Below, piece after piece: positions 1,609 to 48,038 of a DNA stretch of 64,000 nt (the first letter of the stretch is position 1; each line of letters starts with the position of its first letter). This DNA is from an uncultured Erysipelotrichaceae bacterium. GTDB taxonomy: Bacteria > Bacillota_I > Bacilli_A > RF39 > UBA660. The translations under genes and the position numbers were made by a program. The stretch lies in contig CACZQK010000073.1 of the NCBI GenBank assembly GCA_902783315.1, positions 2,498 through 66,497 of the forward strand. The letters are read 5' to 3'. Under the pieces are notes generated by a model. That model was not told the origin of the DNA and did no database searches. It was given only the letters and a program-made list of their open reading frames with translations.

Positions 1609-1718
1609 TATTGATTAAAAGATATGTTTTTAACATGACGATAATAAGAATTTTTGAGAGGCTATAGTTTTATGATGAAGTGTATTAGAGGATACAAATT
1701 TGTAAGGAGATGGTCAAT

Positions 1719-2080
1719 TTGAAACATATTATAATTGCTGGATGTTTGAGAACTGGTAAAACAAGACTTTCCGGTTTATTTGAAGATGGTGGTTACATTT
1801 AAATAATACTATAATAGTATTTTTAGGATATCAAAATGTAGACAAACATAAAAAACTGTGTGCTATAAAGAAATATGATAAAAAGGGAGTATGGACTTTT
1901 TCTAAAAATGATAATGAATTACTTAATCACATCGAATTAGAAATTAAATATAGTATAGAAGCAAAAGAAAAATGTTGTTTATTAGGAATACCGTTTTTTG
2001 ATACTAGTTATGATTTTAATAAAGCTATAAATGATGCTTACAGTTATATAAAAAGTGAACTTGTTAAAGGAGATAATTAA
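1719..2080 (+). pseudogene. Frameshifted, truncated dNMP-kinase-like P-loop NTPase (paralog of the genes at 43384-44477)
   Basis: TTG-initiated LKHIIIAGCLRTGKTRLSGLFEDGGYI* (Walker A) stops at 1800-1802. The +2 frame continues open from 1784 to TAA 2078-2080 (…GIPFFDTSYDFNKAINDAYSYIKSELVKGDN). Its tail resembles the C-termini of the 43384 and 43932 proteins. Confidence 0.4.
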
Positions 2081-2082
2081 AA

Positions 2083-3330
2083 ATGACGCATTGGCGAGAA
2101 GAAAGAAAAATTGCAAGAAAAACGAATAAACCTTCTAAATTTCTTGAACATCAAAATTATTTGGTTCGTGAAGGCTTATTAAATAATCCAAACACAACTT
2201 TTGAAATGCTAGAAGTATTATCACAGGATGATAGTGTACAAATAAGAGAAAAATTAGCAAAGAAGTTTGTTGAAAATGCCATTAATGACAGGAATTGGCG
2301 TGTTCGATATGCGGCAATTAATGATAACCTAGAACTTTCATGTGAAATTCTTGAAAAATTATTGAGTGATAAGGATATCCGTGTCAGAAAAAAGGCAAAC
2401 CAACTTTTAAAAATACAAAAAGAGTATGTTTATCGAGAAGATTTTGATAATGCAATTACAATAAAGCTTGTTATTCCAGGCTCATGTAATGCTAATTGTA
2501 GTTTCTGCTATAACAAACATAGTAATAAAATGGAAAAATGTACTGCAGAATTAAAGCAATATTGGCTTGATAATTTTTTGTTATCACTTGAACAAATTAT
2601 TCTTAAAATTGATAAAAAACAACCTATATCTATTGATATAACAGGTAATGAGCCTACTTTAGATACCAATTTTTTTATTCAGGTTATGCATAAATTAAGG
2701 GGTTTTTCATTAAGGAATGAAGTAAGTAGAATAACTTGTACCACGAATGGTATAGGTCTTAAAAAAGTTGCTCCATTTATGAAGGGAGTTGTAAATTATG
2801 TTAATATTTCTGTTCACGACTATAATCAAGAAAGAAGAAAACAAATATTTGGTACTTATTTTCCAACAGATAAATATTATGAGAATGCTGTTCAACTATT
2901 ATTAGATAATGGTATTCATGCTTCGGCAATTGCAGTTGTTAGTGAGGAAATAAGTAATTTTTCTTCTTGGAGAGATTCTTTTATAAAGTGGGCTGATAAG
3001 ATTGGATTTGTTAGTTTAAGATTTAGGTATGATGTGTATTGCAATAATAATAGTTTTTTAAATTATATGAATAATACTATTAATGATAAAGCGTTTTATA
3101 CTATACAAAAAGAGAATACACCTGATTCAAATTGGTGCCAATTATCTACAAAAGACGGATTCATGGTTTTTTTTCTAAAAGGTGTTATTGATACATATAA
3201 GGTATCTCCTGGAATTGAATTTATTGTTCACGATGATGGAAAAGCATATGCTGATTTTAATAAAAGCGTGCTATTTGAGGAATATGATTTTCCGGTTGGA
3301 TATATTTTTGATAAAAAGTCTATTAAATAA
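2083..3330 (+). CDS. Radical SAM enzyme with an N-terminal HEAT/PBS-lyase-like repeat domain (novel fusion; function unknown)
   Basis: CNANCSFC (CxxxCxxC) at about aa 136-143, ITGNEPTL (GGEP-like SAM motif), TCTTNGIGL (ribose motif), NISVHD; N-terminal 130 aa carry repeated D..VR...A motifs (DDSVQIREKLA, DRNWRVRYAAIN, DKDIRVRKKANQLL); RBS AAAGGAG. Confidence 0.75.
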   Translation: MTHWREERKIARKTNKPSKFLEHQNYLVREGLLNNPNTTFEMLEVLSQDDSVQIREKLAKKFVENAINDRNWRVRYAAINDNLELSCEILEKLLSDKDIRVRKKANQLLKIQKEYVYREDFDNAITIKLVIPGSCNANCSFCYNKHSNKMEKCTAELKQYWLDNFLLSLEQIILKIDKKQPISIDITGNEPTLDTNFFIQVMHKLRGFSLRNEVSRITCTTNGIGLKKVAPFMKGVVNYVNISVHDYNQERRKQIFGTYFPTDKYYENAVQLLLDNGIHASAIAVVSEEISNFSSWRDSFIKWADKIGFVSLRFRYDVYCNNNSFLNYMNNTINDKAFYTIQKENTPDSNWCQLSTKDGFMVFFLKGVIDTYKVSPGIEFIVHDDGKAYADFNKSVLFEEYDFPVGYIFDKKSIK

Positions 3331-39630: not shown

Positions 39631-39655
39631 ATCAAAAAGCTCTCATGTGAGAGCT
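39631..39655 (-). terminator. Rho-independent terminator downstream of holA (minus strand)
   Basis: AGCTCTCA-CA-TGAGAGCT followed by TTTTTGATTT on the minus strand. Confidence 0.6.
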
Positions 39656-39758: not shown

Positions 39759-40694
39759 CTAAATATTTAAGATGAACATCTCAATTAAGTGATTGGCATT
39801 TATATCACTTGTTTTTAATTCTAAATCTATTTTACTTAATTCTTGCATAAGAAGTAGCAATTCTTCTTCGGAATAGAGATGTGTTAGTTCTTTTGTCTTT
39901 TTTATTCTAAACTCTTTTTCTTCCAGGGTATTTGCTATTTCTTTATTATTCATTCTTTTGTTCTCTAATAATTTTACTTGGTAAATAATTCTTATTTGAC
40001 TGGCAAGCAGTCCAATAATACCAAAAGGTTCTATATTGTATGATAGAAGCTCTCGATACTTTCTTAAAGCATCTTCTTTGTCTTTACTTGCTAAACTTTT
40101 AGAAAAAGCAAATACTAAATCTTTGGAATCTCCTAATTTTTTCACTACTATTTCTTTGATATCTTCTTTTGTTATTTCTCTGGTATCTAGCTTATAATTT
40201 TTTAGTTTTTCACATTCTTGAGATATTTTTGTAATATCATCTAGACAATATTCTTTTAAAAAAGAAATGGTATTAGCATCTATTTTATAGCCTTTTAGGG
40301 CTGCTTTTATGTAATCGGTTGAGTCTAATGATATTTGTTTATATTGACAAAGTTTTTTTAGTGTTTTTGTTATTTTACTTGTATTATTTAATTTTTTTGC
40401 TTCTATAATTAATAGATTATCGGGATTTGGATTTTCTATGTATTTGAATAAATGGTCACACTCTTTTTTTAAGTCATCATATTTTATATTTTCAATATTT
40501 TGAATAACGACTATTTTTTTCTTACTTATAAATCCATAGGTATCTAAATCTTCTAGAACTTGGTCTAAGGTGTTTTCTTCTAAATCATAATGACTAGTTG
40601 TTGCTTCTTGAAATTTGTTTTCTTTGATAAGATATTTTCTTTCTTTTTGGAGGGAAAGGGAGTCTGTACATTCTAATAAATAATTATTATTCAT
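39759..40694 (-). CDS. holA: DNA polymerase III delta subunit
   Basis: C-terminal region (…EPFGIIGLLASQIRIIYQVKLL…EEELLLLMQELSKIDLELKTS) fits the HolA pattern; start overlaps the alaS stop by 8 nt. Confidence 0.7.
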   Translation of the reverse strand: MNNNYLLECTDSLSLQKERKYLIKENKFQEATTSHYDLEENTLDQVLEDLDTYGFISKKKIVVIQNIENIKYDDLKKECDHLFKYIENPNPDNLLIIEAKKLNNTSKITKTLKKLCQYKQISLDSTDYIKAALKGYKIDANTISFLKEYCLDDITKISQECEKLKNYKLDTREITKEDIKEIVVKKLGDSKDLVFAFSKSLASKDKEDALRKYRELLSYNIEPFGIIGLLASQIRIIYQVKLLENKRMNNKEIANTLEEKEFRIKKTKELTHLYSEEELLLLMQELSKIDLELKTSDINANHLIEMFILNI

Positions 40695-43380
40695 GAGTTT
40701 TTATTGTTTTCTTGATGTGAGAGATAATTTCATCTATATTCTCTGTTGTCTTTCCTCCACCTTGTGCAAATGTTTTAGAACCTCCTCCATTTCCTTCTGA
40801 AGAGATGGCTGCTTCTTTTACAACTAATCCAGCATGAACAAATGAATTACTTTTAGCAATAAAATTAACACTATTATCCTCTTTAATATTAATAAAGAAA
40901 ATAAATCCATTTTTCATTTCATTTAGAATTGTATCAGCGATACTTTTTAGCAGATTATTATCTTTATCATGGACTTCCATAATAAGCGTTTCTACATTAT
41001 TAATGGTTTCCATATTTTCTCTGTAAATATCTAAGTTTTGCAAAACAGCTTTTTCTTTTAATTCATAGTATTTTTTTTCTAATACCTTTACTTCATGATG
41101 AACATATTGAAGTTCATTTCTATTTAAAATAATGTCTTTGTAAGATGTTGGTTTATCATTGTTAATATCAACATCAAATTCTAAAATTATGCCACTGTTT
41201 TTAGCCTTATCTAGAATTTCTCTTGCCTTTAGGAGTAGTTTAACTTTTTCGTCAGTATATGTTTTTATTGTTTCATACATAGTGGACTCAATTCTATCTT
41301 TTGTTACTGCTTCAATTCTGTAAACATTACTTCCTTTTGATTCACAATTATAAATTGCTAAGGAACCTATTTCTTTGGTGTTTGTTGCATGAGTACCACC
41401 ACATAATTCAATAGATTTTCCTATTTTTACAACTCGTACCTTTTCTCCATATTTTTCATTAAATAAGGCCATTGCACCTAATTTTTTTGCTTTATCTAAT
41501 GGTAATACTTCAGTCGATACAATTAAATTTTCCTTTATCATATCATTGGCAAATTTTTCTACTTCTAAAATATTTTCTTCTGTCATTTTTCCTGAATATG
41601 TAAAGTCAAAGCGTAATCTTTCATTGTCAACATAGCTTCCTGCTTGACGAATGTTTTTTGATACTACTTGTTGTAAGGCATATTGAATAATATGAACACT
41701 TGAGTGATTTGCTTCTATTTGTTTTCTTCTTTCTTTATCAATAACTAATTCGCAAGTATCTCCTACTTTTATTTTTCCATCTAATAAGCGAACTTTATGA
41801 ATATGTTGACCATTTGGTGCTTTGAAGACATCCACTACTCTAGCTTTAAAATTATCTCCTATAATCATGCCTGTGTCACTAACTTGTCCACCACTTTCAG
41901 CATAGAAACAAGTACGCTTAATAGCAATATAAGTATCATGATCAATGGATTCTACTTGTTTATCTTGTGAGAAAATAGCTAAAACACTACTGCGTAAGCG
42001 ATAAATTCCATAGACAAATTCACTATCATCTTTGAAATCTAATAATACTTTTTTTTGGCTTGCCATTGAGGCATTATTTTTTGCATTTTTCTTTGCTAAT
42101 TCTTTTTGAACATTCATGTAATAATCAAATTCTTCTTTTGATACCTTGTATCCTAAGTCCATTAAGTATTCTTCTGTTAGTTCAAATGGGAATCCATATG
42201 TATCATATAGTTTAAATGCCTCTTCTCCACTAATATATCCATCATTAGATTGCGAAACTAACTCTTTTAATCTTCTTTCGCCTGCTTCTAATGTTTTTAA
42301 GAATAATTTTTCTTCTTCCATTACTTTTACTTCTACTTCAGCTCTTTTTTCTGAAAGGTATGGATAAGCATCTTTCATGACATCAACAACATCAGAAACA
42401 ATTTTGTACATGAATGGGCATTCTAGGCCGATTGCTTTTCCGAAGCGGACACTACGTCTTAAAAGTCTTCTTAAAACATAGCCTCTGCCAACATTTTCAA
42501 AACATGCACCATCAGATAAAGCAAATGTTATTGCTCGAATGTGGTCAGCTATTATTTTAAATTCTTTTTGACCTTCATAGTTGTATGGTGAAAGCTCTTC
42601 AATGTGCTTTATGATAGGTTTAAATAAATCTGTCTCAAAGTTACTATCTACATTTTGAAAGATGCAACACCATCTTTCAAGACCAGCTCCGGTATCGATA
42701 TTCTTGCTTGGCAATTCTTTATAGTCTTTACGATTGACACCTTCTTTTGAATTAAATTGTGAGAAAACATTATTCCAAATTTCAACATATCTTTCTTGTT
42801 CTTCATCTTTTTTTAATTTTTCTAATGCATCCCCATTTGGATCATATTTTTCTCCACGGTCAAAGAAAATTTCAGAATCTGGACCACAAGGTCCTTCCCC
42901 TATTTCCCAAAAGTTTCCTGGTAGTGGGACAATATGATCTTCGGCCAAACCAACTTCAAGCCATCTTTCTCTGGCTCTTTTGTCATCAGAATAGACCGTT
43001 ACATATAATAGGTCTTTAGGAACGTCAAAATAGTCTTTCGATGTTAGTAATTCAAAAGCAAATTCAATTGCTTCATCTTTAAAATAATCTCCTATACTAA
43101 AGTTTCCCATCATTTCGAAGAATGTTTGATGTCTTTTGGTAATTCCTACATTATCAATATCATTAGTACGAATGCATTTTTGAATATTAACAATTCTCCT
43201 ACTATCCGGTATTTCTCTTCCGTCAAAGTATTTTTTTAAAGGTGCTACCCCAGCATTAATCCATAATAAACTGTTATCGTTTATTGGTACCAATGGAGCA
43301 CTTTCATAAATTTTGTGATTATGCTTGGTAAAAAAGCGAAACCACATATTTCTAATTTCGTTATGATTCATATATTTCAT
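40687..43380 (-). CDS. alaS: Alanine--tRNA ligase
   Basis: Class II aaRS motifs; editing-domain HxxxH/CxxxH (HSSVHIIQYAL…CGGTHATNTKEIG); DHHA1-like C-terminus; 897 aa. Confidence 0.95.
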   Translation of the reverse strand: MKYMNHNEIRNMWFRFFTKHNHKIYESAPLVPINDNSLLWINAGVAPLKKYFDGREIPDSRRIVNIQKCIRTNDIDNVGITKRHQTFFEMMGNFSIGDYFKDEAIEFAFELLTSKDYFDVPKDLLYVTVYSDDKRARERWLEVGLAEDHIVPLPGNFWEIGEGPCGPDSEIFFDRGEKYDPNGDALEKLKKDEEQERYVEIWNNVFSQFNSKEGVNRKDYKELPSKNIDTGAGLERWCCIFQNVDSNFETDLFKPIIKHIEELSPYNYEGQKEFKIIADHIRAITFALSDGACFENVGRGYVLRRLLRRSVRFGKAIGLECPFMYKIVSDVVDVMKDAYPYLSEKRAEVEVKVMEEEKLFLKTLEAGERRLKELVSQSNDGYISGEEAFKLYDTYGFPFELTEEYLMDLGYKVSKEEFDYYMNVQKELAKKNAKNNASMASQKKVLLDFKDDSEFVYGIYRLRSSVLAIFSQDKQVESIDHDTYIAIKRTCFYAESGGQVSDTGMIIGDNFKARVVDVFKAPNGQHIHKVRLLDGKIKVGDTCELVIDKERRKQIEANHSSVHIIQYALQQVVSKNIRQAGSYVDNERLRFDFTYSGKMTEENILEVEKFANDMIKENLIVSTEVLPLDKAKKLGAMALFNEKYGEKVRVVKIGKSIELCGGTHATNTKEIGSLAIYNCESKGSNVYRIEAVTKDRIESTMYETIKTYTDEKVKLLLKAREILDKAKNSGIILEFDVDINNDKPTSYKDIILNRNELQYVHHEVKVLEKKYYELKEKAVLQNLDIYRENMETINNVETLIMEVHDKDNNLLKSIADTILNEMKNGFIFFINIKEDNSVNFIAKSNSFVHAGLVVKEAAISSEGNGGGSKTFAQGGGKTTENIDEIISHIKKTIKTHE

Positions 43381-43383
43381 AAT

Positions 43384-43935
43384 TTACACCTCTTCTAAAA
43401 TATGTTTTAATTGATTGATTGTATTTTCGATAGTTCCATTATTCAAAATGTAGTAATCTGCATAGGCTATTGGGCCACCTTTATATAAGTTCTCAATTTC
43501 AGATAAATCTCGATAGCAAATGGCTTCTAAGTTGAACGGTCTCTCATGACGTTTTTCCACTCTTGTGTAGCGGATCTTTTTATCGGTAACAATACATATT
43601 AATTTTAACGTTGGGAATTTTTTAATTAAATATTTGTATTCGTACCAGGAATATAAACCATCAACTATTACGTTGTTTTCCTTTATTTCTTTTGCGATAT
43701 CTTTTTCTATAAATTTGGCATAACATTCAGGACCATGTTCTTTCCGAAGGTTTTCACGAAAGTTTTTTTCACTAACTCCATCTTCTGTTCTTTCTATTCC
43801 AGCCTCTTGCATTAGTTTATAGGTAATTCCTCCCATATATAATTTTTTCCAATTGTTTTTTTCTAAATATTCGGTGATAATGCTTTTACCAGCTCCACTC
43901 ATGCCAACAACTGCAATTAGTTTATTCATAATCAA
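43384..43935 (-). CDS. P-loop NTPase, dNMP-kinase-like (paralog A)
   Basis: Walker A VGMSGAGKS; C-terminus …YADYYILNNGTIENTINQLKHIL resembles the phage-T4-type dNMP kinase tail. Confidence 0.55.
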   Translation of the reverse strand: MIMNKLIAVVGMSGAGKSIITEYLEKNNWKKLYMGGITYKLMQEAGIERTEDGVSEKNFRENLRKEHGPECYAKFIEKDIAKEIKENNVIVDGLYSWYEYKYLIKKFPTLKLICIVTDKKIRYTRVEKRHERPFNLEAICYRDLSEIENLYKGGPIAYADYYILNNGTIENTINQLKHILEEV

Positions 43936-44477
43936 TCCTCATAATTTTCTTCACTTCTTACTATCTCTAATGCGGCATTTTTTAGATCTGCAAGAGATCT
44001 ATTTTCAATAACATAGTCAAATTGGTTATAGTCTAATATTTCTTTTTCGGTTATATGATTAGCCTCTTCTTCTGATAATTTGGCATCATAATTTTTTCTT
44101 TCTAATTTAATGGTAACGACATCATCATATTTATTTTTTATTCCTTCAAATTCACGGATTAGTCTAGCATCAACAATAATAAATGTATCAAAGAAATTCA
44201 AAAGGATCTCAATATCTTCATATAATCGTCTTAAAAGAAAATCTTTTTTACCCATTTTTTCAGAAATAATTTCAATTCCCATTTTTTGTAAAAATTCGCG
44301 GGGCTTATCTTCTTCTCGCCCGTCCCAGTCAAAATAGTTTTTGGCAAAAGTATAAAGTGGTTCCGTAATATGCATTACACAAGGCTTATAACCATAGTCT
44401 TTTAATTCCTCTCTTAAATATTCACCAAAAGTGTTTTTCCCTGTTTTTGCCAAACCACCTATTACAAATATTTTCAT
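43932..44477 (-). CDS. P-loop NTPase, deoxynucleoside-monophosphate-kinase-like (paralog B)
   Basis: Walker A IGGLAKTGKNT; overall resemblance to T4 gp1 dNMP kinase (N-terminus MKIFVIGG…GK.T, C-terminus FDYVIENRSLADLKNAALEI); RBS AAGGAGGA; 4-nt overlap with paralog A. Confidence 0.55.
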   Translation of the reverse strand: MKIFVIGGLAKTGKNTFGEYLREELKDYGYKPCVMHITEPLYTFAKNYFDWDGREEDKPREFLQKMGIEIISEKMGKKDFLLRRLYEDIEILLNFFDTFIIVDARLIREFEGIKNKYDDVVTIKLERKNYDAKLSEEEANHITEKEILDYNQFDYVIENRSLADLKNAALEIVRSEENYED

Positions 44478-44491
44478 AAATCCTCCTTAAT

Positions 44492-44722
44492 AAAAAAAGA
44501 ATGATACCTAAGGAGTGCATCATGCACGGTACCATCCTTTTATAACTTTATTTTGAATAACGGTCTCCCGATTAAACTCCTTGAGTAGCTTCTTGAAAGT
44601 ATTATCGCTTTTTGCACCAACCAAAGCGTCTCTAAAATAATTTCTTTCAATACTCATCTCAAATCATCGTTTATTGATTTATTACGTCTTTTATTTTAAC
44701 AAATATTAAGTAATTATTCAAT
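44492..44722 (-). ncRNA. T-box riboswitch leader with alanine specifier (GCU), including promoter TTGAAT-N17-TAAAAT (plus 44722..44694) and terminator (plus ~44492..44548)
   Basis: Minus strand: specifier-loop context AAGAA-GCU-A (…CAAGAAGCTACTCAAGG…). T-box sequence AAAAGGATGGTACCGTG (consensus AATTAGGGTGGTACCGCG). An 11-bp terminator stem AGGATGGTACC/GGTATCATTCT followed by U7 lies just before the RBS of paralog B. Confidence 0.7.
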
Positions 44723-44755
44723 CCTAAATTTTAAAATTTTATTACTTATCTCTGA

Positions 44756-45979
44756 CTATTCTGCTTTTATGTTGTCCTTTTTCTCTTTTAAAAAATCTAT
44801 AACCCCTGTTTCCTCTGAAATAAACACTAGGATTACTTTAATACAAGCAATACAAGGAGTTGCAATGACCATACCAAATATCCCTAAGAAATGTTGGAAA
44901 ATTAATAGTCCTAAAATGATTGTAACTGGGTGTAATTTTAAAGTATGTCCCATTATTAGTGGCTGATAGAAATTGTTTTCTAATAGTTGAACTACAAGTA
45001 TTGATATAATTACACAAATCCCTGTTATAGGGGAAATAGTAAAGCCAACAATGACAGCTGGAATTCCTCCTATATATGGACCAAAATATGGAATTATATC
45101 AGTTACGGCACAAAACATGGCAAATAATATTGGTGCTTCCATACCAGCTAGGGTAAGACCAATACTTTGAGTTACAAAGACTAATAACATTACTGTTAAA
45201 ACTCCTTGAACATAATTTCTTAGTGATGTATTAATTCTATGTATTAATTCTTCATATCCTTCACGCCATGAAATTGGTATAAGATCATAGATTGTATTAT
45301 TGACTTTTTCAAAATCAAATAATAAATAGAACCCAATCATTAAACCTAATGTAAAATTAAGACCCTTATTAATAATACTTTTTCCAAATGTAAATAAATA
45401 CTTTGGCATATCAGAACCGATATGTATGCCATAATCTGTGATGATTGATGTTAATTCTTTCTTTATATTGTTGATATCAATCATATGATTGGTATCGACT
45501 TTCTGAATTAAGTTTAGTAAAAAATTACTAATACTTTCAAATATATCTGGTGCTACATTTAAAAAATCTTTTAATTGGGAAACTAAAGCTGGTATTAATA
45601 GGTATGAGACTAAAAATATACCTCCTATTATAACTAAATAAACGAGAATACAACTAATAAGTCTTGGTATTTTTCTATTTTGCATTTTTAATACTAGAGG
45701 TTCAAAAAACCAGGCTATTAGAAAACCAATAAAGACGGGGGAAATAACCATAAATAAATCTTTTACATATTTTAGTATATTCCATTCTTTTATTAAGTAT
45801 GTTCCTAATAAAATTAAACATATAATAGCCATAAAATAGCCAATATTCATTAGTTTTTTTCCTATTTTTAGAATGTGATTTAAGCTTCCTATATCTATGT
45901 TTACTTCTTTTTCTTTTTGTTTACGAAACATCTTTCTCATCTCCAATTTAATTGTATCAAAAATTTTTTTATTTTTCAA
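44756..45979 (-). CDS. AI-2E family (UPF0118, PerM/YhhT-like) transporter
   Basis: 8 TM helices with the family-typical …PYFGPYIGGIPAVIVGF… segment. Confidence 0.7.
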   Translation of the reverse strand: MKNKKIFDTIKLEMRKMFRKQKEKEVNIDIGSLNHILKIGKKLMNIGYFMAIICLILLGTYLIKEWNILKYVKDLFMVISPVFIGFLIAWFFEPLVLKMQNRKIPRLISCILVYLVIIGGIFLVSYLLIPALVSQLKDFLNVAPDIFESISNFLLNLIQKVDTNHMIDINNIKKELTSIITDYGIHIGSDMPKYLFTFGKSIINKGLNFTLGLMIGFYLLFDFEKVNNTIYDLIPISWREGYEELIHRINTSLRNYVQGVLTVMLLVFVTQSIGLTLAGMEAPILFAMFCAVTDIIPYFGPYIGGIPAVIVGFTISPITGICVIISILVVQLLENNFYQPLIMGHTLKLHPVTIILGLLIFQHFLGIFGMVIATPCIACIKVILVFISEETGVIDFLKEKKDNIKAE

Positions 45980-46623: not shown

Positions 46624-47313
46624 CTAAGTGTTAATGAGGTTTTTTAATTTTTTGATGACCTTCTTTTCAATTCTTGAAATATAAGATTGCGAAATTCCTA
46701 ATTTTTTAGCTACTTCTTTTTGTGTATATTCTTCATTTCCTAATAAACCATATCGCAAAATCATAATTTCCCTATCTCTATTTTTTAGACCTAATATTTC
46801 TTGAATCATTAAATTGCGATTATCTTTTTCTTCAATATTTTTTGGAACTTCATCTTTATCTGTTCCAATTACATCTTCTAAATGTAATTCATTACCATCA
46901 CAATCATATGAAAGTGCTTGATCAATACTTACTTCACATTTTACTTTTTTATTTTTTCTTAAATACATTAATATTTCGTTATCAATACAACGGGAAGCAT
47001 AAGTTGCTAATTTTATATTTTTGTTGCTGCTAAACGTATTTATTCCTTTGATGAGTCCGATACTTCCAATACTTACTAAATCCTCTAAATCTACTCCTGT
47101 GTTTTCATATTTTTTGGCTAAAAATACTACTAGACGTAGGTTGTGTTCTATTAATTTGTCTTTGGCAAACAAATTCCCGGTTTCTTTCAAATGAATGTAT
47201 TTTTCTTCTTCTTCCTTAGTTAACGGTTCTGGCAATATGTCTGTTGCTCCTACGTAAAAGCAACTACCTACTTTTAAAAATATTTTTTTTATGAATTGTA
47301 TTAGTTTTAACAT
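46624..47313 (-). CDS. sigE: RNA polymerase sporulation sigma factor SigE (pro-sigma-E)
   Basis: Near-collinear with B. subtilis SigE: …YVGATDILPEPLTKEEEEKY…NLRLVVFLAKKYENTGVDLEDLVSIGSIGLIKGINTF…KLATYASRCIDNEILMYLR…SQSYISRIEKKVIKKL. Confidence 0.9.
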   Translation of the reverse strand: MLKLIQFIKKIFLKVGSCFYVGATDILPEPLTKEEEEKYIHLKETGNLFAKDKLIEHNLRLVVFLAKKYENTGVDLEDLVSIGSIGLIKGINTFSSNKNIKLATYASRCIDNEILMYLRKNKKVKCEVSIDQALSYDCDGNELHLEDVIGTDKDEVPKNIEEKDNRNLMIQEILGLKNRDREIMILRYGLLGNEEYTQKEVAKKLGISQSYISRIEKKVIKKLKNLINT

Positions 47314-48038
47314 AATTCCTCCTTTAATTTATTGGGTAAAATACAATTGGCATCTGAAAAGGCAAATTTTTCAGTGGCTATGCCAATTAAACAGTGTGAT
47401 ATTTTTTTGTTGTTTATTATTATTTTGTCTGGTCTAATACATGGGATAATTCCCGAAGTATTTAAGGCTTTATATGGTACATAAATAACTTTCTTTAGTG
47501 GTATTTTTAAATTTACTAGAATGACACTTTCTTTCTTGATTGGAGATACTAGTCTATTTCCTGTATCAATAAAGCCTTCTAATAAATATTCTTTTTTTTG
47601 ATATACTATTTTTACCAAATATTTGTTTACTATTTTTTCTTTATAACTTAAAAACTCTTTGCAAAAAATAAAAATAATAAAAGCACTACCAATAATCAAA
47701 AGTAAGTAGTAGCAATAAATGTTTTTGGAAAAATCTAATAAATAGAAACTACCTCCTAATATGATGCTTATCAAATAAAAATAACCGGTATTTTTTATTA
47801 TATTCTTTTTTCCAAAACTTGCATAATTTATAAAAAAGCTAAGCACTATTTTTAGAATAATTAGTGTAAAATTAGATATTTTGATAAATAAAAATAAAGT
47901 TGTACTAGTTCCTATAAGGGATCCAAATATTAATCTAAAATTCTTTTTATTTATTTTTAGTATTCTTTTAGTTCCGTAAAGAATCATAAAATCAAGTAAA
48001 AAGTTTAAAAGAAAAATAAACTCATAATATATTTTCAT
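47307..48038 (-). CDS. spoIIGA: Sigma-E processing peptidase SpoIIGA
   Basis: Five N-terminal TM helices and a C-terminal aspartic protease motif GFIDTGNRL; located immediately upstream of sigE. Confidence 0.85.
   Translation of the reverse strand: MKIYYEFIFLLNFLLDFMILYGTKRILKINKKNFRLIFGSLIGTSTTLFLFIKISNFTLIILKIVLSFFINYASFGKKNIIKNTGYFYLISIILGGSFYLLDFSKNIYCYYLLLIIGSAFIIFIFCKEFLSYKEKIVNKYLVKIVYQKKEYLLEGFIDTGNRLVSPIKKESVILVNLKIPLKKVIYVPYKALNTSGIIPCIRPDKIIINNKKISHCLIGIATEKFAFSDANCILPNKLKEELC

Follow-up and report, generated by a model that had tools for sequence, protein, structure and literature searches.

Why should a leader that senses tRNA-Ala be followed by two nucleotide-kinase-like genes rather than by the alanine--tRNA ligase gene itself? 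The question is raised by a stretch of 64,000 nt (hereafter the window, which is also the scope of the in-window searches) on contig CACZQK010000073.1 of an uncultured Erysipelotrichaceae bacterium. On the minus strand, an AI-2E-family transporter gene is followed by a 278-nt non-coding leader, by the putative operon of gene A, gene B, alaS and holA, and by a terminator-like hairpin. Genes A and B encode P-loop proteins, and holA encodes the delta subunit of DNA polymerase III. An original prediction, made from the sequence alone, had described an alanine T-box with two kinase-like genes, and not alaS, directly downstream of it, and this arrangement is borne out. We consider tRNA-Ala attenuation centred on alaS, with the other genes as housekeeping passengers, to be the most likely explanation of the locus, and we hold it with fairly high confidence.

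The leader (44676..44492) comprises Stem I, an IIA/F-box hairpin, the antiterminator/terminator region and a U-tract. It is preceded by a sigma-70-type promoter-like site (44721..44693) made up of TTGAAT, a 17-nt spacer and a TG-extended TAAAAT. A scan of the whole window at Rfam gathering thresholds gave no match. The gathering score of the T-box family RF00230 is 93 bits, and the element is visible only with an E-value threshold. The covariance-model check proposed with the original prediction, run in this way on 44400-44800, matched 44676..44508 with 88.8 bits and an E-value of 3.6e-20 over model positions 1-219. The score falls below the gathering value because Stem II is completely, and Stem III near-completely, deleted in the alignment; neither Stem II with its S-turn nor Stem III was found in the Rfam alignment, and Stem I and the IIA hairpin are just 1 nt apart. 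The two stems are not strictly defining for a T-box, since glyQS and some alaS leaders are without Stem II (PMC4695836).

Stem I carries the GA/K-turn motif, a specifier loop (GAA, codon, purine), the AG bulge AGAGA and the distal loop GGUGNRA (GGUUGGUG). The specifier codon is GCU, for alanine (44589..44587), in the context GAA-GCU-A. A Stem IIA-like hairpin, CGG-GAGA-CCG followed by UUA (44570..44558), falls on the Stem IIA/F-box portion of the Rfam alignment and yields the F-box-like CCGUUA; the same alignment contains the T-box sequence AGGAUGGUACCGUG. In the window the T-box sequence reads AAAAGGAUGGUACCGUG (44541..44525), and this conserved sequence forms an antiterminator with the 7-nt UGGNACC bulge. 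Within it, UGGU (44534..44531) is predicted to base-pair with the 3'-terminal ACCA of tRNA-Ala, the discriminator of which is A73 (PMC4695836). An intrinsic terminator followed by a U-run is predicted at 44541..44492 from minimum-free-energy (MFE) folds, with a U7 tract at 44498..44492. The promoter, specifier, T-box sequence and U7 terminator had all been placed at these coordinates by the original prediction, and its assignment of the leader to the Ala-specific T-boxes that act by transcription attenuation is supported. Characterised alaS leaders likewise have a GCU specifier and a UGGU bulge, and natural deletion variants occur among them (PMC4695836); according to TBDB, Ala T-boxes favour U-ending specifiers (PMC7778990).

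To compare the leader across relatives, we fetched 87 related loci (L001-L087), whose AlaRS proteins are 67-92% identical to that of the window over the full length. They come from uncultured gut/rumen Bacilli, with records labelled Bacilli, Erysipelotrichaceae, Mollicutes or 'Candidatus Faecimonas'. In the alignment of their 79 non-redundant leaders, UGGU and the T-box sequence AGGAUGGUACCG are invariant, the Stem I motifs are invariant or nearly so, and all Stem I helices show compensatory changes. The specifier is GCU (GCA in four) in 78 of the 79 leaders, while L079 has a small insertion at that position. RNAalifold predicted 41 pairs, and compensatory changes are present in 34. On the same alignment, a structure specified by hand (Stem I, IIA hairpin and antiterminator) was then scored against controls in which the 3' partners were slid by 1-3 columns. 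Standard pairs make up 94.3% of cells versus 43-54% in the slid controls, and the covariation score is 0.524 versus 0.08-0.12; of 500 shuffles, none attained the observed value. The antiterminator helices A1 and A2 are 99% paired, A2 with covariation, and the IIA hairpin is paired in 95% of cells in the relatives, with some C-G to G-U changes. Some of the relatives have a similar TG-extended promoter-like site, equally far from the leader, and 29 of 83 leaders passed a strict scan for it. Judged by this sequence conservation, the leader of the window is a functional, selected T-box.

How might this leader switch? In the MFE fold of the window leader, AAAAGGAUGGUACC (44541..44528) pairs with GGUAUCAUUCUUUU (44508..44495) and encloses a GUGCA/UGCAC hairpin, and the rest of U7 follows. 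When UGGU was blocked to mimic binding of the tRNA 3' end, the MFE structure flipped to the antiterminator, AAGGA/UCCUU together with GUGCA/UGCAC. In these predicted folds the terminator and the antiterminator are mutually exclusive, and the topology is unusual in that the 3' strand of the modelled terminator competes for the T-box strand itself. On an AlaRS tree of 83 sequences (single-gene neighbour-joining, indicative only), the window-type terminator is restricted to one subclade. In most relatives, AAGACCA...UGGUCUU flanks the whole antiterminator and is followed by UUUAUUUG.

The alaS leaders of B. subtilis and C. acetobutylicum share with the window leader the GCU specifier, the UGGU matching the ACCA end of tRNA-Ala, and transcription attenuation before alaS. 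The B. subtilis leader has both Stem II and IIA/B, whereas that of the window has no Stem II and no detectable Stem III; the C. acetobutylicum leader is without both Stem II and IIA/B, whereas that of the window, also without Stem II, keeps the IIA/F-box-like hairpin (CGG..CCGUUA). Unlike in both of these leaders, the 3' strand of the predicted window terminator captures the T-box strand and not the 3' half of the antiterminator, and two kinase genes stand between the leader and alaS. T-box operons that do not open with the ligase gene have been documented (PMC2494555). In streptococci (SAG0809, spr1241; Wels et al. 2008, PMC2494555), an Ala T-box is followed by a 'hypothetical' gene and then by alaS, so that the ligase comes later, as in the window. 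The window differs from these operons in its passengers, which are two proteins of the nucleoside monophosphate (NMP)-kinase fold and the downstream replication gene holA; full-text literature searches found nothing linking T-boxes to cytidylate kinase, deoxynucleoside monophosphate (dNMP) kinase or holA.

Does the leader reach alaS at all? The ligase gene (43380..40687, 897 aa) is identified by TIGR00344 (827.7 bits against a cutoff of 457) and by the Pfam domains tRNA-synt_2c, tRNA_SAD and DHHA1, and holA (40694..39759, 311 aa) by TIGR01128 (193.3 bits against a cutoff of 80), DNA_pol3_delta and DNA_pol3_delta_C. The genes are tightly packed, with junctions of +2 nt (A-B), +3 nt (B-alaS) and -8 nt (alaS-holA), and each has its own Shine-Dalgarno sequence. 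The start of alaS 3 nt past the second P-loop gene and the 8-nt overlap of holA with the alaS stop agree with the original reading. A gene B of 183 aa with a TTG start and a 4-nt overlap, as first proposed, is unlikely: the position aligned to ATG 43929 is Met in 60 of 65 distinct sequences of gene B from relatives, and a GAGGA Shine-Dalgarno sequence lies upstream, so that the A-B junction is a 2-nt gap and ATG 43929 is most likely the start of a 181-aa gene. There is no second T-box or leader before alaS, as had been noted, since the 3-nt gap leaves no room for one. No positionally conserved promoter was found before alaS among the 87 loci; in 30 of them the 150 nt ahead of alaS contain promoter-like sites, compared with 20.6% of control windows in coding regions. 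A hairpin, AGCUCUC-ACAU-GAGAGCU, followed by a U-run (39655..39638) likely marks the operon end. Given the gene spacing and the lack of a conserved internal promoter, a single T-box-controlled transcript for all four genes appears to be the parsimonious reading.

The order transporter, leader, cassette, alaS, holA is common to the 87 loci wherever the contig extends that far, and is also found in the later loci L088-L093; of the 95 related loci fetched in all, 87 are counted as keeping the gene order. Among the 83 loci on the AlaRS tree, the cassette between leader and alaS consists of A and B in 65 loci, A and a canonical cmk in 13, B only in three, A only in one and cmk only in one; in the further partial locus L017, cmk lies directly before alaS where the contig ends. 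T-box(GCU)-A-B is retained in a locus with a gene A of 40% identity, while a 33%-identical member of the gene A family adjoins pgk-tpi and has no T-box. Thus the arrangement is a trait of the clade and not of the protein family. The possibility raised with the original prediction, that the P-loop genes are absent in close relatives and represent a recent insertion, does not fit the recurrence of the arrangement in the 87 loci and in the 40%-identity locus.

Some relatives depart from the window in detail. In L036 (1335-3545), an inserted 736-aa open reading frame (ORF) separates the AI-2E transporter gene from the leader, with the leader and operon otherwise intact. In L002 (7103-9788), alaS is called as two ORFs (598 and 283 aa); it is intact in the near-identical L003 and L004, and the split is probably a sequencing or assembly frameshift. 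A thymidine kinase gene (PF00265) lies two genes upstream of the operon in many relatives (L002:3291-3896, L005:3292-3918, L092:1784-2395) and not at that position in the window; where present, it adds to a clustering of nucleotide-salvage genes.

What are the two passengers ahead of alaS? Gene A (44477..43932, 181 aa, Shine-Dalgarno sequence AAGGAGG) carries the NCBI name 'hypothetical protein'. It matches PF21448 (DNMK) with 29.3 bits against a cutoff of 27.1, a marginal match limited to residues 60-166 in the C-terminal half. Its family profile, searched against the PDB, found animal-type phosphomevalonate kinase (PMK) over the full length (7xnd, E 1e-6; 3ch4) and T4 dNMP kinase (1dek) over half the length (E 1.4e-4). 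The AlphaFold (AF2) model, with a predicted local distance difference test (pLDDT) score of 85.6, has 7xnd, 3ch4 and 1dek as its best Foldseek matches, at template modelling (TM) scores of 0.64-0.70. By profile and by Foldseek, PMK thus matches gene A as well as or better than DNMK. Gene A shares its fold with T4 gp1 (1DEK, PF21448) and with animal-type PMK (3CH4, 7XND) at 14-19% identity, and it differs from them in being chromosomal and clade-conserved; it is also shorter than T4 gp1 (181 versus 241 aa), to which only the C-terminal half aligns. The family is broad, with 1099 clusters at 50% identity (E <= 1e-3). A phage origin was rejected, as tblastn at E <= 1e-3 against 50,697 phage records gave no match. 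We regard gene A as a putative kinase of the DNMK/PMK-like branch, as its sequence and model suggest.

Gene B (43929..43384) is a P-loop protein of the NMP-kinase fold that carries the NCBI name 'AAA family ATPase', and its sole Pfam match is PF13238 (AAA_18). Its profile matches the Sulfolobus protein SSO1041 (UPF0200; 3LW7/3H0K) over the full length, at E 8e-18 across residues 3-180. The AF2 model (pLDDT 89.8) superposes on SSO1041 with TM scores of 0.80-0.85 and a root-mean-square deviation of 2.6 A in Foldseek. The two proteins have in common the Walker A motif, the DG..S motif and an Arg-rich lid. On profile and model evidence, gene B is a bacterial homologue of the archaeal UPF0200/SSO1041 ('AdkA-like') family. 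A UPF0200 structure has been available since 2009, and the ligand in the 3LW7 crystal of SSO1041 is AMP; a literature search found no published function for UPF0200/SSO1041.

The original prediction had described A and B as paralogs, both T4 gp1 dNMP-kinase-like. BLASTP aligns only their Walker A regions (E 0.019) and their best families differ, so that paralogy was rejected; by sequence they are members of a common fold class and not paralogs in any useful sense. The dNMP-kinase label fits gene A, through its marginal DNMK match, but not gene B, which is UPF0200/AdkA-like.

A clue to the function of gene B comes from the gene that replaces it. Canonical cmk occupies the exact slot of gene B ahead of alaS in 20 fetched loci (15 of the first 87 and five sampled later), and when the cassette variants were placed on the AlaRS tree, the cmk-bearing lineages were scattered over at least six places. 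Gene B is not itself a member of the Cmk family, as it has no PF02224 match and scores 19.7 bits with TIGR02173 (archaeal CMP-kinase) against a cutoff of 102.1. It shares with canonical Cmk (PF02224) the identical operon position and the NMP-kinase fold class, and it is shorter (181 versus 215-217 aa). In a search with the Cmk of the clade, the top 120 homologues were 60-71% identical, and all five homologues sampled on large contigs lie in the slot A-cmk-alaS-holA, with none elsewhere. Genomes with A+B outnumber those with A+cmk by about 4 to 1, and if the A+B genomes kept cmk elsewhere, most cmk matches should be found in other contexts; none was seen there, which supports repeated displacement between Cmk and B. 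Neither cmk nor extra copies of A or B were found elsewhere in the window by tblastn. Since cmk and B are interchangeable in one slot, genomic context and positional displacement indicate that gene B probably encodes a (d)CMP kinase that is not orthologous to Cmk but substitutes for it, and the same prediction extends to UPF0200. SSO1041, from Sulfolobus solfataricus, is described as an 'adenylate kinase-related protein', whereas the context of its bacterial homologue points to (d)CMP kinase activity.

We propose the following model for the locus. Transcription would start at the promoter near 44721..44693, and the 5' leader would act as a reduced tRNA-Ala T-box, with a GCU-bearing Stem I, the IIA/F-box hairpin and UGGU and with no Stem II. 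With charged tRNA-Ala, the T-box strand AAAAGGAUGGUACC would pair with GGUAUCAUUCUUUU, and transcription would stop at U7. With uncharged tRNA-Ala, pairing of the anticodon to GCU and of ACCA to UGGU would stabilise the AAGGA/UCCUU antiterminator, and RNA polymerase would read through into one mRNA carrying the four translationally coupled genes A, B, alaS and holA. The regulatory logic would be that of alaS; the kinase genes and holA would be passengers fixed around alaS in an ancestor from which this clade of gut Bacilli descends, presumably sustained by the substantial basal read-through that any essential aminoacyl-tRNA synthetase (aaRS) gene needs. Four points of this model are inferences: that the genes are transcribed together, in which direction they are regulated, that the kinases and holA are passengers, and which reactions A and B catalyse.

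Several observations weigh against this model. The window leader scores about 4 bits under the Rfam gathering score, and six relatives spanning every cassette variant score 65-87 bits, all under it (E-values, window included, from 3.6e-20 to 7e-12). At the gathering threshold there were no matches in 12 relatives (L002, L008, L011, L013, L031, L053, L058, L066, L069, L077, L079 and L083). With scores of 65-89 bits against 93, the leader of the whole clade would be missed by routine Rfam-threshold annotation. The window contains no tRNA-Ala gene in which to check the anticodon and discriminator. A promoter-like TTGAAT-17-TACAAT lies at 43446..43418, in the 3' end of gene B and 38 nt before the alaS ATG, so that alaS-holA may be independently transcribed in this genome. 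This site is unconserved: its TTGAAT comes from the conserved codons for ILNN, and relatives do not preserve its -10 element. Promoter-like hexamers are common in the AT-rich genome (47 found versus 39.7 expected). That A+B genomes have no cmk at another site is deduced from the sampled contexts of cmk homologues.

A further difficulty concerns the switch. In 72 of 83 related leaders (e.g. L002:5793-6000), the base helix of the predicted terminator (AAGACCA/UGGUCUU, then UUUAUUUG) can form alongside the antiterminator, so the switch model is shown on paper for the window-type subclade only. In these 72 leaders the predicted terminator helix encloses the antiterminator, and secondary structure alone therefore gives no switch; when alternative pairings were searched for a helix competing with the majority-type terminator, none was convincing. 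It is tempting to join this platform with the exchange of gene B, in a reading in which UPF0200, as a non-orthologous (d)CMP kinase, has supplanted Cmk in situ on repeated occasions in a clade of gut Bacilli and most leaders of the clade carry a terminator helix enclosing the antiterminator. We put forward this joint reading tentatively and rate it as somewhat short of probable.

Could the coupling itself be adaptive? The kinases and holA would then have been placed under tRNA-Ala sensing deliberately, so that dNTP/NTP supply and clamp-loader synthesis track the translational status of a small-genome organism. The slot between leader and alaS is always filled by genes of the NMP-kinase fold (A+B, A+cmk, A, B or cmk), alaS is always followed by holA, thymidine kinase lies nearby in many relatives, and the arrangement persists down to 40% identity of gene A. 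However, the direction of T-box regulation disfavours this explanation, as induction on starvation would raise replication and nucleotide functions just as growth stalls. Gene A is dispensable at the site (L077, L083-L085), as is gene B (L069), literature searches found no precedent, and the fusion of unrelated housekeeping genes into an operon is simpler. We therefore consider adaptive coupling unlikely.

Alternatively, the co-regulation could be nominal, with internal promoters in A, B or the 3' end of B supplying most transcription of alaS and holA, and with the T-box controlling the kinases only or persisting as a decaying relic. The site 38 nt before alaS, the promoter-like sites near alaS in 30 of the 87 loci and the clade-wide sub-threshold Rfam scores would fit this view. 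However, the internal sites do not keep a fixed position among the loci and exceed the 20.6% background only modestly. A relic is also difficult to reconcile with a leader under strong purifying selection, in which compensatory changes occur, the T-box sequence is invariant and the Ala specifier is conserved, and the low score stems from a known Stem II-less architecture, not from decay (PMC4695836). This explanation appears more unlikely still. That A and/or B act on tRNA or an alanine-related substrate, for instance as a tRNA or aminoacyl-tRNA kinase for which T-box control would be logical, is highly improbable: both genes stand under an Ala T-box directly before alaS, the fold of A resembles O-phosphoseryl-tRNA kinase (PSTK; TM about 0.5) and Wels et al. 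annotated unknown genes before aaRS genes by T-box specificity (PMC2494555), but the slot of B is interchangeable with canonical cytidylate kinase, A scores clearly better on small-molecule kinases (PMK, T4 dNMP kinase) than on PSTK, distant members of the A family adjoin pgk-tpi without a T-box, and a Pfam scan found no RNA-binding domain in A or B.

Two further regions of the window are of note. On the plus strand of the window at 1710..1802, a 30-aa ORF with a Walker-A-like AGCLRTGKT (HIIIAGCLRTGKTRL) is followed by stop-riddled frames and looks like a P-loop gene remnant, with a radical-SAM/HEAT-repeat gene (2083..3330) just downstream. The original prediction had named a third, decayed paralog beside the radical-SAM gene at 1.7 kb; the radical-SAM gene is there, but the paralogy was rejected, as tblastn at E <= 10 found nothing, there was no Pfam match, and hidden Markov models of the A and B families scored about 1 bit on the six-frame translation of 1377-2083. 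Beyond the AI-2E transporter gene (45979..44756), the operon adjoins a gene for a sigma-70-family factor with an N-terminal extension (46624-48038 on the minus strand; L001:1986-3403, L088:938-2337). In relatives, a Peptidase_U4 (SpoIIGA-type) gene immediately precedes the sigma factor gene and a Peptidase_S55 (SpoIVB-type) gene lies nearby, so that sporulation-type genes are found near the operon despite several records being labelled Mollicutes, Tenericutes or Mycoplasma.

Together, our results favour tRNA-Ala attenuation of an alaS-centred operon. In principle this is an ordinary alaS T-box; what is unusual is its reduced, sub-threshold leader, its nucleotide-kinase cassette and replication-gene passengers, and the non-canonical terminator of most relatives. 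Because a reduced T-box is missed by standard annotation at the Rfam threshold throughout this widespread clade of uncultured gut/rumen Bacilli, T-box regulons are under-counted in such genomes. If the enclosing terminator of most relatives is real, tRNA-dependent read-through would need a mechanism beyond strand exchange, such as the capture of a purine-rich 5' strand, AAGACCAA, by tertiary contacts. The repeated in-place exchange of B and cmk offers a cheaply testable function for UPF0200/'AAA family ATPase' proteins, for which public databases give no annotation. Finally, the expression of essential genes for nucleotide kinases and replication seems to hinge on read-through at an attenuator that senses an amino acid, a rare reach of a T-box beyond amino-acid metabolism, and this dependence of the kinases and holA would bear on how regulation is laid out in small genomes.

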